Below, in pieces: positions 50,544-54,608 of a DNA stretch of 64,000 nucleotides. The stretch is from assembly GCA_003576915.1 (NCBI GenBank), contig QEVF01000009.1:17638-81637 (forward strand), given 5' to 3'. A program made the position numbers and the translations under genes. Numbering within the stretch: position 1 is the stretch's first letter; each line of letters starts with the position of its first letter. Under the pieces are notes generated by a model. It saw only the letters and a list, made by a program, of their open reading frames with translations, was not told the DNA's origin and searched no databases. Source of the DNA: Planctomycetota bacterium (lineage in GTDB: Bacteria > Planctomycetota > UBA8742 > UBA2392).

Positions 50544-50903
50544 TCAGGCCCGCCTGAACTTCTCGCAGGCGTAGGGCTGGTCTTTCAGCGCTTTGCACAG
50601 CGCGTCTTCGGTCAGCTCGCAACCCGCCTTCATGGTGATGGTCAGCGTTTCGTGTTTCTCGTCCAGGCTCACCTCGTCCACACCGTCCAGTGCGAGCACC
50701 AGCTTCCTGAGGGCGGCTGCGCCTTCGGCGTCCTTGACTCCGCTGACCGAAACTTCATATTTCGCTGCCTTCACGGGCAGGTTGCGCGGGCCTCAGCCCG
50801 CTCACAGAAAGTCGGGCGTTGCGCCCCCGGCGCCAAAGGGCGCCGCCGACAGCGCGCCGCAGGACAGTGCGGCCAGCAAAACCAGCGTGAGCATCCTGTG
50901 CAT
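50544..50903 (-). CDS. Exported protein with N-terminal UAGU motif (two in-frame TGA) followed by an HMA-like ferredoxin-fold domain; putative selenoprotein A
   Basis: GAGGAG lies 6 nt upstream of the ATG at 50903. Signal peptide MHRMLTLVLLAALSCGALSA. The TGAs at 50802-50804 and 50793-50795 are in frame with the 76-aa ORF at 50544-50774, reading ..DFL-U-AG-U-GPRNLPVKAAKYEVSVSGV.. The listed ORF starts only at an internal GTG. Confidence 0.6.
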
Positions 50904-50960
50904 GGCATTCTCCTCAGGCCCCGATTGGGACGCCGGCGCGGCCGTCGAGGTTCCGCCAAT

Positions 50961-51272
50961 TCAGGGACCGGCAGGCGTCAGGGGGCTCAACTGGCGCAGG
51001 GTTACCCCCTGTTCGAGGGCCAACCGCTCAAGGGCAGCGCGCAGGGCCTGCTCCGTGCCAAGCCAGGTGATGTGAAACTCGCCCTGGGGCTCTTCGTATA
51101 CGCTTTGGACGCCATCCAGGCGCGCGATCATCTGATCGAAACCGGGTCAGTCCTCGCCTCACTGCCCGTAATCGAGCCAGGCGAGATAGTGGTGGGGCGG
51201 GGGCGCCTGCGGTTTGGGCGGGGCCGCACAGGCGGCGAGCAGCAGCAAGGACGTGAGCCACATCAAGCGCAT
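50961..51272 (-). CDS. Lipoprotein with HMA-like domain carrying UGEDU at the metal-binding loop (two in-frame TGA); putative selenoprotein B
   Basis: The ATG at 51272 gives MRLMWLTSLLLLAAC (lipobox). The TGAs at 51159-51161 and 51147-51149 are in frame. My manual translation downstream is stop-free to the TGA at 50961: ..YLAWLDYGQ-U-GED-U-PGFDQMIARLDGVQSVYEEPQGEFHITWLGTEQALRAALERL.. I see no clear SD. Confidence 0.55.
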
Positions 51273-51283
51273 GTCATAGAATA

Positions 51284-51315
51284 GAAAACCGGGCAACTGG
51301 CGTCGCCCGGTTTTC
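51284..51315 (-). terminator. Intrinsic terminator-like hairpin downstream of selenoprotein C
   Basis: On the minus strand, GAAAACCGGGC-GACGCCAGTT-GCCCGGTTTTC is followed by TATTCT. Confidence 0.6.
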
Positions 51316-51333
51316 GTATTGCGGCGGAGGATG

Positions 51334-51753
51334 CTACTTGCCGGAGCCCTTGTTCCCGTCAGTTCCGTCCTTCTTTTCTTCCTTCTTTTCTTCCTTGGTC
51401 TCCTCGCCTTCCTTGGCGAAAGAGCGGACGCTGAACTTGCTGTCCTCGAAGGCCTTGACGACCGCATCCTTCTCGATCGTCTTGCCTTCCTTCATCGTGA
51501 CGGTGGCTTCCTGCTTCTTCTTGTCCCACGTTGCTTTTTCCACGCCTTCCAGGCTGGAGAGGGTCTTGACGACCGCAGGTCCTCACGTCGCTCACGTCGC
51601 GCCGTCGATGCCAACCTTGTAAACCGTGGGTGCTGCCTTGGCCGGCTGCTCGGCCTTCTTTTCTTCGCCCTTGCTCTCCTGGGCCTGGCAGGCCACGCCC
51701 GCCACACTGACCGAGAGCAGGAGCGCGGCAGCGACGAATCCCATCTGACGCAT
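51334..51753 (-). CDS. Exported HMA/MerP-like protein with GAT-U-AT-U-G at the GMTCxxC position (two in-frame TGA); putative selenoprotein C
   Basis: AGGAGG lies 6 nt upstream of the ATG at 51753. Signal peptide MRQMGFVAAALLLSVSVAGVAC. TGAs at 51592-51594 and 51583-51585. The readthrough product VYKVGIDGATUATUGPAVVKTLSSLEGVEKATWDKKKQEATVTMKEGKTIEKDAV aligns with the Cys paralog VVTIEGMTCIKCAKAVEKAIAAIDGVESVKVCDKSGKALVTMKEGKTLDKTAV. Confidence 0.7.
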
Positions 51754-51825
51754 GTGCATCCTCCTGTTAGAGAAATGGAAACAACCCTTCCATATGGAAC
51801 TACGGAGGGCAGCTTAGCATTCCGC

Positions 51826-51858
51826 AAAAAAAGAGGGAGCGGCGCAGGCCGCTCCCTC
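51826..51858 (-). terminator. Strong rho-independent terminator after the Cys-type HMA gene
   Basis: On the minus strand, GAGGGAGCGGC-CTGC-GCCGCTCCCTC (11-bp stem) is followed by TTTTTTT. Confidence 0.8.
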
Positions 51859-51877
51859 GGCATGCGGGCGCAGAAGA

Positions 51878-52360
51878 CTAGCCCTTGGACTTCTCTGCCG
51901 TCTTCGCTTCCTTGTTCTCGTCCTTCTTGGGTTCGGCCTTCACGACGGACTTGGTCTTGAACTCCGTCTCCTTGAGGGCCGTCTCGACGGCGGTCTTGTC
52001 AAGGGTCTTGCCTTCCTTCATGGTGACCAGCGCCTTGCCGGACTTGTCGCAGACCTTGACGGACTCAACACCGTCAATGGCGGCAATGGCCTTCTCCACG
52101 GCCTTGGCGCACTTGATGCAGGTCATGCCTTCAATCGTCACGACAAAGCTGTTGGCCTTGACCTCGCCGCAGCCGCCACAATCCTTGGCATCGCCCTTGT
52201 CACAGCAGCCCTTGCCTTCTTCTTCACAGCACTTCTCGCCGTCCTTCTTCTCGCTCTTCTTGTCGCCGCAGCTATCACAGCCCTTGCACTGGGCCATCAG
52301 CGGGGCGCCGGCGAAAGCCAGGCCGAGGAAGAGCATCAAAGCAGTCAGGAACTTCGTCAT
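51878..52360 (-). CDS. Exported Cys-rich HMA domain protein (MerP/CopZ-like, canonical GMTCxxC)
   Basis: The ATG at 52360 gives signal peptide MTKFLTALMLFLGLAFAGAPLMA. A Cys-rich linker follows (CKGCDSCG..CCEEEGKGCCDKGDAKDCGGCG), then VVTIEGMTCIKCAKAVEKAI. Confidence 0.85.
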   Translation of the reverse strand: MTKFLTALMLFLGLAFAGAPLMAQCKGCDSCGDKKSEKKDGEKCCEEEGKGCCDKGDAKDCGGCGEVKANSFVVTIEGMTCIKCAKAVEKAIAAIDGVESVKVCDKSGKALVTMKEGKTLDKTAVETALKETEFKTKSVVKAEPKKDENKEAKTAEKSKG

Positions 52361-52459
52361 GTCGTCTCCGTTCATTAGTGCGGGGCAAGGCCCCATCGTG
52401 GTTGTCGTAAGCGGCCCATTATAGACGAACGGGCCGGGTCCGTCCTTACATCAAAATGG

Positions 52460-52936
52460 TCATTTCACCTTGTGTCGCGCCTTGAGCGCCTTCCAGTCTC
52501 CCTGCAGGTCCTCCTTGAAGCTGAAGACCTCATAGCCGAAGTCCTTGTAGATGAAGTCTGTGACAGTCTTCTCGTCCAGCCGGATCTGGGGCTTGCACAG
52601 GACGAAAAGCGTGAATTCCTCGATCACGGTGAAGCTGTCCAGCAACCCATACTGGGTGGTGAGGGCGTCCACGACGCCCGTGGTTCAGCCGCCTCAGTCG
52701 ATGCCCTTGAGGCCGATGGCGTAGATCACCTCCCTGATTTCCGGCCTGGCTTCCGGTTCCGCCTTGGGTTCAACCTTCGGCTCGGCCTTGGGCTGGGGCC
52801 TCGCGCCGCAGCCGGAGTCAACGGAAGCAGGCTCGCCGCCGCCCTTGCGCAGATGCACGGGCTGGAAGTCTTCTTTGGTGAGCTGGCAGCCGCCCGTCAG
52901 GGCCAGCAGCAACAGGGCCAGGAGTCCGCGGTTCAT
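52460..52936 (-). CDS. Lipoprotein with HMA-like domain carrying UGGU at the metal-binding loop (two in-frame TGA); putative selenoprotein E
   Basis: GAGGAG lies 6 nt upstream of the ATG at 52936. Lipobox LALTGGC. The TGAs at 52694-52696 and 52685-52687 join the listed ORFs 52694-52936 and 52460-52672 in one frame: ..EVIYAIGLKGID-U-GG-U-TTGVVDALTTQYG.. Confidence 0.65.
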
Positions 52937-52946
52937 AGCCTTCTCC

Positions 52947-53834
52947 TCAAATCAGGTAGCTGAACATCAGCATGAATTCGCCTTCATGGTAGAACTGCTT
53001 GCCGAACAGATAGCGATAAACCGGCAGGTTCAGCCCGAACTTGCACTCGATGCGGTTGGTGATGTTCATCTGCATGCCAAGCGCCAGATGTACGAAATAG
53101 CCGCCGCTGTTGTCATCGCGGTCGCCGTGCATGCGTCCGCGGTGCTCAAAGCGGGCGTCGGCCTCCACCAGCAGAATCAGGTCAAAATCGCGGTAATCCG
53201 TAAGCTGGAACACGCGATAGGCGTAGGCCAGGTGGGCCTGGGCTTCGGGGCCCGCGCCGCTGCCGTCAATCTGGGTGCTGCCGCGCCCCGCCAGGTCAAA
53301 CCAGAGGTAGTGGCGTGTGGTGCTGGTGGAAGCTGAGAGGCCGAACGTGAACGTCCAGTTGTCGTCAAACTCGTCGCCCATGGGCTCGCCGTGGCGCCGC
53401 GTGGCCGTGGGCATGTCGATCGTGGCAAACCACGACGCCTTGGTGGAACCGCCCTCAAACACGTTGTTGAGGAAGCGGTAAGTGCCGGCCAGAGAGAACT
53501 TGCGGGCGCCGGAGTAGACCTCGCTCCCGTCCTTGCTGTGTTCGCGCATGTAGAAGTAGGGCGTCTTGATCCGCATGGCGAAGTCGCGCGAGAACCCGTA
53601 GGTGACGCCGGGCTCGATGGTGTGCATGAACATGCGGCGGTCGCGCCCGTTGGAATCGGGGTTGTCGCCGCTGAAATAGCGGAAGGCCCAGTCGAACTCC
53701 TGCTCGAGTTCAAGTTCGAGGCCCTTGTTCCAGATGGTTCTGGGTCCCAGTCCGAACATGGTTTCGTGGGCGCTCACGGCGCCCGCGCCCAGAACTCAGA
53801 CCAGTGCCAGCAAAGCCAGGTGCTTCAGCGTCAC
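52947..53834 (-). CDS. Putative outer-membrane beta-barrel protein with one in-frame TGA inside the signal peptide
   Basis: The GTG at 53834 is preceded by AAGGAG with a 6-nt spacer and overlaps the merR stop (GTGA). The N-terminus MTLKHLALLALV-[TGA 53796-53798]-VLGAGAVSA|HE is a signal peptide. The body has alternating beta-strand-like sequence and ends ..MLMFSYLI. Confidence 0.6.
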
Positions 53835-54274
53835 GCCGGACTCCTTTTCTTGCCCTTGGGGGCCCTGGTTGGACCGCCTTCTATGCCTTGGAGGATGCTG
53901 CAGCATTCGGTGCTCTTGTCGCCGCCGGGGCAGCGTTCAATGAGGTCAGCGAGGTGATCGCGCATCTCGGTCAGCAGCTCGATTTTGCGAGTAATCTCGA
54001 TGAGCTTGCGCGAGGCAAGCTCGCTGACGTCTCCGCAGGTGGCGAGGTCGGAGGTGCGCAGGAACAGCAGGTCCTGAATCTCTTTGAGCGTGAAGCCGAC
54101 ATCCTTGGCGCGCTGGATGAAGCGCAGGCGCGCGACGTCGTCGTCGCCGTAGAGGCGATGGCCGCCGGCGCTGCGCTCGGGTTTGGGCAACAGACCCTCG
54201 CGCTCATAAAAGCGCACGGTTTCGATGTTGATGCCCGTGGACTCGGCCAGCTTGCCTACCGTCATGGTGGTCAT
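53831..54274 (-). CDS. merR: MerR-family regulator with the mercury-type Cys triad
   Basis: The HTH is KLAESTGINIETVRFYEREGLL. Cys80, Cys115 and Cys124 have the same spacing (35 residues, then C-x8-C) as Cys82, Cys117 and Cys126 of Tn501 MerR as I recall it. Confidence 0.85.
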   Translation of the reverse strand: MTTMTVGKLAESTGINIETVRFYEREGLLPKPERSAGGHRLYGDDDVARLRFIQRAKDVGFTLKEIQDLLFLRTSDLATCGDVSELASRKLIEITRKIELLTEMRDHLADLIERCPGGDKSTECCSILQGIEGGPTRAPKGKKRSPA

Positions 54275-54291: not shown

Positions 54292-54322
54292 AAGTTACCT
54301 CCGTAGCTTACTACGGGTTCAA
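54292..54322 (-). promoter_or_regulatory. MerR-type promoter/operator: -35 TTGAAC, 19-bp spacer containing dyad CCGTAG-N4-CTACGG, -10 TAACTT
   Basis: The minus strand reads TTGAAC CCGTAGTAAGCTACGGAGG TAACTT. The spacer counts to 19 nt. The dyad resembles the Tn501 mer operator (TCCGTAC-N4-GTACGGA). It lies ~18 nt upstream of the merR ATG. Confidence 0.75.
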
Positions 54323-54524: not shown

Positions 54525-54552
54525 CTGAAAGCTGGTGGTCAGGGCCGGACTT
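54525..54552. repeat. Direct repeat copy overlapping the 3' end of tRNA-Phe
   Basis: See 54364-54391. Confidence 0.9.
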
Positions 54553-54608
54553 GAACCGGCGACCCATGCATTTTCAGTGCATTGCTCTACCAACTGAGCT
54601 ACCTGACC
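54533..54608 (-). tRNA. tRNA-Phe (anticodon GAA), CCA encoded
   Basis: The minus strand reads GGTCAGG TA GCTC AGTTGGTA GAGC A ATGCA CTGAAAA TGCAT GGGTC GCCGG TTCAAGT CCGGC CCTGACC A CCA. This gives a complete cloverleaf. Confidence 0.9.

Follow-up and report, generated by a model that had tools for sequence, protein, structure and literature searches.

The window analysed here is a 64,000-nucleotide (nt) stretch of DNA from a Planctomycetota bacterium (GCA_003576915.1, contig QEVF01000009.1), and the subject of this study is an operon on its minus strand in which a gene for an outer-membrane beta-barrel protein follows the gene for a MerR-family regulator. The signal peptide of the barrel protein is interrupted by an in-frame UGA, and a hairpin resembling a selenocysteine (Sec) insertion sequence (SECIS) lies 11 nt downstream. 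The features at the start of the barrel gene are as follows.

53846-53841, minus strand: Shine-Dalgarno sequence AAGGAG, 6 nt 5' of the GTG start
53834-53832, minus strand: GTG start of the barrel precursor, which shares bases with the merR stop as GTGA
53798-53796, minus strand: in-frame UGA at signal-peptide codon 13, the proposed Sec codon, conserved among orthologs
53768..53784, minus strand: SECIS-like hairpin GGGCGC-CGUGA-GCGCCC, 11 nt from the UGA to the stem and 17 nt from the UGA to the loop
53784-53779, 53778-53774 and 53773-53768, minus strand: first stem arm, loop (CGTGA) and second stem arm of that hairpin
52947..53834, minus strand: full barrel precursor, a 22-residue signal peptide that includes the UGA plus a mature part of 273 amino acids (aa), with the stop codon at 52949-52947

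An initial annotation of the window had described this arrangement, and all of its coordinates were reproduced from the sequence. The GTG at 53834, which is backed by a ribosome-binding site, overlaps the merR stop as GTGA. The TGA at 53796-53798 splits an otherwise normal signal peptide and is in frame with the 276-aa open reading frame (ORF) at 52947-53777, and a perfect stem-loop is present 11 nt 3' of the TGA at 53768-53784. Read across the TGA, the precursor is MTLKHLALLALV-TGA-VLGAGAVSA, then HETMFGLGPRTIW (mature HETMFG...), in the same frame as the 276-aa ORF. Signal peptidase is predicted to cut after VSA, which makes His (codon 53768-53766) the first residue of the mature barrel. As the annotation also pointed out, use of the listed start of the ORF (GTG 53777) would deprive a beta-barrel protein of its signal peptide.

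The AlphaFold2 model of the barrel protein was all-beta (predicted local distance difference test score, pLDDT, 83; predicted template modelling score, pTM, 0.78). The best match by template modelling (TM) score in Foldseek was the COG4313 outer-membrane channel 4RL8 (TM 0.74-0.75), and FapF took the top rank by E-value (TM 0.59-0.68). A profile search placed only 10 cluster representatives below E = 1e-30; this small close family shades into proteins of PF13557 (Phenol_MetA_deg), which belongs to the same superfamily and which remote relatives match (for example P0080, with 53 bits, and P0041, with 49). The window protein itself had no match in Pfam, the gathering score of PF13557 not being reached. 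The protein database held 34 relatives, all from metagenome-assembled genomes (MAGs) of Planctomycetota or from metagenomes, and a Pfam domain was found in none of them (0/34). The barrel protein resembles the COG4313/PF13557 proteins and structure 4RL8 in its predicted fold, similar size and C-terminal motif like a beta-signal. It differs from them in belonging to a narrow Planctomycetota-specific subfamily that is always found beside merR and has a nearly invariant mature His.

Part of the 34 relatives have an unbroken, ordinary signal peptide, and many others are annotated with implausibly short N-termini that begin just past the TGA column. The n, h and c regions and the AxA site were present in all orthologs, and the UGA breaks them in most. 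The cleavage region AxA↓H(E/N)T(M/L)FG (the arrow marks the predicted cut) is conserved in the ortholog alignment, with the mature N-terminal His present in at least 90% of sequences. Because the AxA↓H site is canonical and the mature His nearly invariant, a Sec at the UGA would leave with the signal peptide. The N-terminal His bared by cleavage of the signal peptide could serve as a metal ligand.

For the orthologs, one genome per species and a metagenome collection were scanned, and the DNA was translated upstream of the conserved mature N-terminus. The initial annotation had proposed a comparison of the codon at this position in orthologs, and most of them proved to retain the TGA. In all, 22 distinct sequences had an in-frame signal-peptide TGA; they come from about 20 species-level MAGs of Planctomycetota and from independent contigs of metagenomes, and extend down to a protein identity of about 42%. 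Nine further orthologs have a sense codon, mostly without a hairpin. Seven independent assemblies of one lineage, with a protein identity of 96%, carry the TGA unchanged, and in the orthologous loci L009 and L033, the proteins of which are 65-70% identical, it occupies the same codon. The interrupting codon is TGA in 22/22 sequences and TAA or TAG in none (0), while the true gene ends mix TGA, TAG and TAA. In the clade of the window the TGA stands 10 codons ahead of the mature His. In a second clade (clade B, about 42% identical) it stands 15-17 codons ahead of the His, right behind the charged n-region, as in MRLLLR-TGA-LLILLPAVLPASLAA↓HNTLFG. Both halves of the signal peptide are in frame in 22/22 TGA sequences in spite of changes in length.

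Between pairs of TGA-bearing genes, the ratio of nonsynonymous to synonymous substitution (dN/dS) of the mature protein was 0.04-0.34 at dS values of up to about 1.2, which indicates purifying selection. The genes with the TGA are thus working genes, and the ribosome must get past the UGA. The annotation had also raised the possibility of a sequencing error, and the recurrence of the TGA in independent assemblies and in other species speaks against this. Sequencing or assembly error and pseudogene formation were ruled out by this recurrence together with the purifying selection. Genome-wide reassignment of TGA was ruled out as well, as TGA is the terminal stop of merR and, at the conserved C-terminus, of several barrel genes. 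No other genes with this split architecture were found in about 450 kb of DNA from related loci.

The nine TGA-less orthologs have mostly Val, Leu or Ser at the TGA column and Cys in one only (L040). The codons of L040 (TGT, Cys) and L018 (TCA) are both one base from TGA. In the tree of the barrel protein, the nine TGA-less sequences are dispersed among the TGA-bearing ones, a pattern that fits an old TGA that was lost at least five times. In L023 and L024 a Cys codon directly precedes the TGA (VKLLLC-U-...), so that a C-U dipeptide would result; these two loci also have the weakest simple hairpins.

The consensus used for the hairpin was the Zhang and Gladyshev model of the bacterial SECIS (bSECIS) as summarised in PMC13188914. 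It specifies an upper stem of 4-16 base pairs (bp; Fig. 2 of that paper) that carries a 3-9 nt loop, a G at loop position 1 or 2 with G or U as the usual next base, a distance of 16-37 nt from UGA to loop and an energy of -7.5 kcal/mol or lower (PMC13188914). The window hairpin agrees with all four published bSECIS criteria. The hairpin is not particular to the window: in all 22 TGA sequences (22/22) a GC-rich stem (4-9 bp) carries a loop (3-6 nt) with GU, which is always an in-frame Val codon, and the GU-containing loop begins 21-26 nt from the U of the UGA in 22/22. The loops were CGUGA, GUC, GUCC, CGUGCU, GUUG, CGUGGC, GUUC and GUG, and GU occupied loop position 1-2 in 20/22, the exceptions being L024 (UGAUGC) and L028 (CCGUGAUGC).

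With a simple stem, 18/22 sites satisfied all published criteria, and the UGA-to-loop distance in those 18 was 17-21 nt. The same 18 sites satisfied a tight version of the criteria (spacing of 17-22 nt and GU in the loop), against a background of 11,434 other TGA triplets in the same loci of which 7.5% passed the loose version and 1.1% the tight one. The remaining 4 sites folded at -8.1 to -14.2 kcal/mol with bulges permitted; the bulged fold of L028 has a 9-nt loop with G at neither of its two opening positions. Within the stretch that codes for the signal peptide, the best hairpin averaged -10.7 kcal/mol in 23 TGA-bearing sequences and -5.7 kcal/mol in the 9 TGA-less ones (p = 5e-4, without phylogenetic correction). 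Most TGA-less orthologs have neither the hairpin nor the loop Val, and L018 and L031 retain remnant hairpins such as are known from former selenoproteins (PMC1794560). When the sequences were recoded at random with synonymous codons, 0/500 recodings attained the observed summed hairpin stability. The hairpin had been compared in the initial annotation to the SECIS of Escherichia coli fdhF, and both the agreement with the bSECIS criteria and the co-occurrence of hairpin and TGA among the orthologs support that comparison.

In the window the 5' arm GGGCGC occurs twice in tandem (GGGCGCGGGCGC, 53779-53790, minus strand), and the 3' arm can pair in two registers. RNAfold favoured the outer register, which has a larger, interrupted loop (-15.9 kcal/mol).

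The genes that follow the barrel gene carry in-frame TGAs as well. Four small secreted or lipoprotein genes (50544-52936, minus strand) have two in-frame TGAs each at metal-binding positions (8 TGAs together), which with the barrel TGA gives 9 candidate Sec codons in the operon. ORF lists and public gene calls break each of these four genes into two fragments in the same frame. The downstream features are listed here.

52460..52936, minus strand: lipoprotein selenoprotein candidate, AIGLKGID-U-GG-U-TTGVVDAL, with TGAs at 52696-52694 and 52687-52685
52663..52679, minus strand: SECIS of the lipoprotein gene, GGGCGUC-GUG-GACGCCC (39 bits with covariance model R1, which was made from the lipoprotein SECIS)
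51878..52396, minus strand: secreted HMA protein with an ordinary CxxC (GMTCIKC), matching Pfam HMA and the CopZ-like and MerP-like families of NCBIfam
51334..51759, minus strand: secreted HMA selenoprotein candidate, VGIDGAT-U-AT-U-GPAVVKTL, with TGAs at 51594-51592 and 51585-51583
50961..51272, minus strand: small lipoprotein-like selenoprotein candidate, LDYGQ-U-GED-U-PGFDQ, with TGAs at 51161-51159 and 51149-51147
50544..50903, minus strand: secreted HMA-like selenoprotein candidate, TPDFL-U-AG-U-GPRNLPVK, with TGAs at 50804-50802 and 50795-50793

The gene directly after the barrel gene has the motif LG(I/V)(D/N)GMD-U-G(Q/G)-U-(A/T)TG in 27/27 loci, whether or not the barrel gene has the TGA. 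Its hairpin (GGGCGUC-RUN-GACGCCC) lies 21 nt from the first UGA, with fixed spacing, in 27/27 loci. This hairpin covaries: one stem position is G-C, A-U or U-A, and 0/500 shuffles equalled the observed score. The barrel hairpin of the window (GGGCGCCGUGAGCGCCC) and the neighbouring lipoprotein SECIS (GGGCGUCGUGGACGCCC) are equal at 14/17 positions, and one of the differences in the stem is compensatory. Neither the lipoprotein UG(G/Q)U family (L010-L044) nor the UGEDU protein matched any family model of Pfam or NCBIfam, and the lipoprotein family therefore looks like an undescribed selenoprotein family.

The HMA gene that comes next alternates between species, with GM(T)-U-xx-C in some and GM(M/H)-C-xx-C in others; such alternation of Sec and Cys is a standard signature of true selenoproteins. 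The candidate at 51334..51759, with U read as C, matched PF00403 HMA at 31.7 bits (cutoff 24.8) as a complete domain across the motif. Its best NCBIfam match was NF041115 (UxxU_metal_bind) at 33.5 bits, under the cutoff of 95. The UGE(D/G/S)U motif of the candidate at 50961..51272 is kept in L011, L012, L031 and L032. In 50544..50903, the UAGU motif is followed by the hairpin CUGCC-CGUGAA-GGCAG, the loop of which starts like that of the barrel hairpin, and the HMA match of this protein is weak (20.9 bits, under the cutoff). The CxxC HMA protein has ahead of its HMA domain an N-terminal stretch that is very rich in Cys and rich in Lys and Glu (CKGCDSCGDKK...CCEEEGKGCCDKGDAKDCGGCG), and several proteins of the operon end in Lys/Glu-rich tails.

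The upstream part of the operon consists of the regulator gene and a candidate promoter.

53831..54274, minus strand: MerR-family metal-sensing regulator of 147 aa (Pfam MerR_1, MerR-DNA-bind and MerR)
54292..54322, minus strand: candidate MerR-type promoter TTGAAC-19 nt-TAACTT, with the dyad CCGTAG..CTACGG in the spacer, read by eye

Counted from the translation, Cys80, Cys115 and Cys124 of the MerR homologue have the spacing of MerR/PbrR-type proteins. Its best NCBIfam match, TIGR02051 (Hg-responsive MerR), scored 132.2 bits against a cutoff of 150.85; the models for ZntR, CueR and CadR scored almost as high, and no curated equivalog cutoff was reached. The 19-nt spacer of the candidate promoter falls outside the 16-18 nt range of the promoter scan. 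A long spacer with a dyad between the promoter boxes is the layout typical of MerR-type promoters. The merR and barrel genes, the coding sequences of which overlap as GTGA, appear to be co-transcribed. Further down the operon, two strong terminator-like hairpins with T-runs are present at 51858-51833, after the CxxC HMA gene, and at 51315-51284, after the UATU HMA gene.

A tRNA-Phe(GAA) gene (54533-54608, minus strand) adjoins the merR-barrel operon, as is also the case in L011-L016, L024, L026, L027, L030 and L032. In some loci of clade B it is replaced by tRNA-Gln, and this conserved synteny could mark an integration hotspot.

Insertion of Sec requires SelA, SelB, SelD and tRNA-Sec. The conserved UxxU and UxxC sites, the alternation of Sec and Cys and the covarying SECIS of the lipoprotein gene lead us to infer that this clade decodes UGA as Sec, and that this operon is a place where it does. 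A tRNA-Sec gene was not found in the window or in 23 related loci. Complete Sec machinery is known in some cultured Planctomycetes (PMC4807772).

Conservation of the UGA, a hairpin of the SECIS type, purifying selection and Sec-type motifs in the neighbouring genes are observed together at this locus. We consider it probable that the barrel TGA is a Sec codon, with the hairpin at 53784-53768 as its SECIS, and that it serves within the cleaved signal peptide as a selenium gate. Under this interpretation SelB carrying Sec-tRNA(Sec) would bind the hairpin and Sec would enter the signal peptide of a COG4313/PF13557-type channel as residue 13. Once signal peptidase had cut at the predicted site, the Sec would be discarded with the signal peptide; it would have no role in the finished protein, and its value would be regulatory. 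If charged Sec-tRNA were lacking, the ribosome would release the chain after 12 residues (6-12 residues across the orthologs, in which the UGA is codon 6-13) and no channel would be made. Channel output would in this way be tied to the supply of selenium and kept in step with the downstream UxxU and UxxxU proteins, which would need two Sec each. Early termination could possibly also cut the expression of the next genes through polarity. Since the downstream partners themselves need Sec, such a checkpoint makes biological sense.

The UGA lies at two depths in the signal peptide, its neighbouring residues vary, and it is replaced by Val, Leu, Ser or Cys; together these suggest that the chemistry of the residue is irrelevant and that selection has kept the translational effect. 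The stronger form of the proposal is that of a dedicated selenium gate, in which Sec decoding was selected purely as a switch and the channel depends jointly on metal (through MerR) and on selenium (through SelB and Sec-tRNA). We advance this form only tentatively, as a possibility that falls somewhat short of an even chance. A gate of this kind would be old in this clade of Planctomycetota, and its loss on five or more occasions would mark it as dispensable.

Several points weigh against the selenium-gate interpretation. All of the evidence is computational and based on MAGs, and the ortholog lineages are related, so that sequence counts such as the 22 with TGA overstate independence. The stability of the hairpins is ordinary for GC-rich DNA, with z-scores of -0.1 to -1.2 relative to dinucleotide shuffles. 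Covariation of the clade B hairpin is weak, with one compensatory pair (L017) and the other changes G-U wobbles, and the clade B shuffle control was non-significant (77/500 shuffles equalled the observed percentage paired and 66/500 the covariation score). The stem could in part be a by-product of conserved Ala, Val, Pro and Gly codons in GC-rich DNA. Rfam gave nothing at gathering thresholds in the window and only chance-level matches at E <= 10 around the site. Covariance model R1 did not retrieve the barrel hairpin at E <= 10 and found only its own site in the window; this model is dominated by the conserved coding sequence of the lipoprotein gene, and its miss was counted neither way. What speaks for the hairpin is where it lies, what its loop contains and that it accompanies the TGA, not covariation or raw stability. 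Val, Leu and Ser, with a single Cys, in the TGA-less orthologs are unlike the replacements in typical selenoproteins, though they are expected if the residue is chemically idle. Searches by tblastn with SelA, SelB and SelD of E. coli found none of the three in the approximately 450 kb of locus DNA, to which such genes need not be linked. The internal terminator-like hairpins suggest that the distal selenoprotein genes are separate transcripts, which would limit polarity. Recent reviews and family surveys yielded no precedent for Sec or UGA in a bacterial signal peptide.

Other explanations of the UGA were weighed against the same data. Readthrough at low frequency by a near-cognate tRNA, likeliest tRNA-Trp, would require no Sec machinery and would make the UGA a throttle, with the hairpin either incidental or slowing release factor 2. 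UGA is the leakiest stop codon, the residue at this position seems unimportant (Val, Leu, Ser and Cys in the TGA-less orthologs), and the hairpin covaries weakly and has ordinary folding scores, as noted above. The base after the UGA in clade B is usually C, and UGA followed by C is a weak termination context in E. coli, but Leu codons (CUN) in the hydrophobic core also bring a C to this place and confound the comparison. Readthrough leaves unexplained why all 22 sequences have a GU loop at a set distance (17-22 nt) from the UGA, why the hairpin and the loop Val are lost in most TGA-less orthologs and why the window's hairpin is a near-copy of the SECIS of the neighbouring gene. Moreover, in a cell with SelB and Sec-tRNA, as this one presumably is, a UGA with such a hairpin would be expected to recruit both. 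We regard readthrough as unlikely. A chemical role for the Sec, in a retained signal anchor or in a released peptide that handles a soft metal (Hg, Cd, Ag or Cu) at the inner membrane, would suit an operon built round Sec and Cys ligands for soft metals under a MerR-type sensor. Transmembrane Cys pairs in MerT carry Hg. The C-U pair of L023 and L024 would fit such a role too, a C-U motif having been tied to heavy-metal binding (bioRxiv 10.1101/2022.07.06.499078). This idea has a slim chance given that the UGA lies at two signal-peptide depths in the two clades with adjacent residues not conserved, that it was swapped at least five times for Val, Leu or Ser with no other changes, and that a canonical AxA↓H cleavage site is followed by the mature His in at least 90% of sequences.

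Regulation of the leader-peptide type is very improbable. Here the first 12 codons would be a mini-ORF, and the barrel would be translated from GTG 53777 or ATG 53759 by reinitiation. Gene callers do place the start at an internal Met or GTG, the hairpin loop shows an in-frame GUG in many sequences, and the overlap of the merR stop with the start of the mini-ORF suggests translational coupling. From a start at 53777 or 53759, however, the outer-membrane barrel would lack a signal peptide, and what follows the UGA is the rest of a canonical hydrophobic core and then the AxA site. A leader ORF would also not account for two halves that are in frame in 22/22 sequences despite changes in length, and in clade B no canonical start occurs soon enough after the UGA to yield a signal peptide. 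The loop codon is GUC or GUU, neither of them a start, in L009, L010, L017, L020 and L022. The loop GUG as a reinitiation start was ruled out on account of these five lineages and because its product would miss the signal peptide. As for an error of sequencing or assembly, or a decaying gene that a mutation has inactivated, such artefacts and pseudogenes most often take the form of a lone in-frame stop early in the gene, and some orthologs do have a sense codon here. The presence of the same TGA in 8 independent assemblies of the close lineage and in about 20 further species, under strong purifying selection and always as TGA with the same type of hairpin, reduces this explanation to a negligible one.

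The Sec codon that we favour for the barrel gene can be compared with several known systems. It shares with the fdhF-type SECIS of E. coli an in-frame UGA, a GC-rich stem-loop within the coding sequence and a G-U at the start of a small loop 17-22 nt on. The 11 nt from UGA to stem in fdhF is the same in the window, and the neighbouring genes carry canonical sites of the Sec/Cys type. It departs from known Sec-UGA sites in that the Sec would sit in a cleavable signal peptide and not in a redox or metal site, which would make it a matter of control, not chemistry. According to Thanbichler and Böck, a SECIS-like element in the leader of E. coli selAB reportedly binds SelB and controls translation. 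The resemblance is that RNA of the SECIS type and SelB are used for regulation and not for a catalytic site. In contrast, no UGA is decoded in the selAB element, which works on initiation of the mRNA for the machinery itself, whereas the UGA of the window lies in the coding sequence of a client. The selAB element is discussed in PMC13449736.

Phage Qbeta A1 is a case of programmed stop-codon readthrough. There, as here, a conserved UGA must be passed for a functional product, and most ribosomes probably terminate. Cases of the Qbeta A1 type extend the C-terminus and give two products, whereas the stop in the window's family comes early (codon 6-13) and would leave a useless peptide. Among the downstream proteins, 51334-51759 and 50544-50903 resemble the heavy-metal selenoprotein families NF041115 (UxxU) and NF045683 (MerT/CopZ-like), which are listed in a heavy-metal context (PMC13188914), in having HMA-type domains with CxxC written as UxxU in a heavy-metal context. 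They differ in scoring far under the curated cutoffs (33.5 vs 95 for 51334-51759 with NF041115), and the known families NF041115 and NF045683 include no partner gene with a signal-peptide UGA.

Recoding through UGA and SECIS is already known, as are metal-binding selenoproteins with UxxU; for a conserved Sec codon within a signal peptide that can be cleaved, the recent reviews and family surveys searched gave no counterpart. Proteins normally contain Sec only where they need its chemistry, and selenoprotein searches lean on Sec/Cys pairs at active sites. If our interpretation is true, the barrel gene would be the first natural case in which Sec decoding is kept purely as a regulatory switch and the residue is thrown away, and the recoding machinery would also serve as a nutrient-sensing control element. 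There would then be a class of UGA sites that current selenoprotein finders overlook and that gene callers misannotate as N-terminally truncated proteins without signal peptides, which was the fate of this family in all database entries inspected. The operon itself, with nine in-frame UGAs, a MerR-type sensor, an outer-membrane channel and putative Sec-based binders of soft metals, is an undescribed one from Planctomycetota of wastewater and sludge communities, and it would be relevant to the handling of mercury, cadmium, silver and selenium in these systems.

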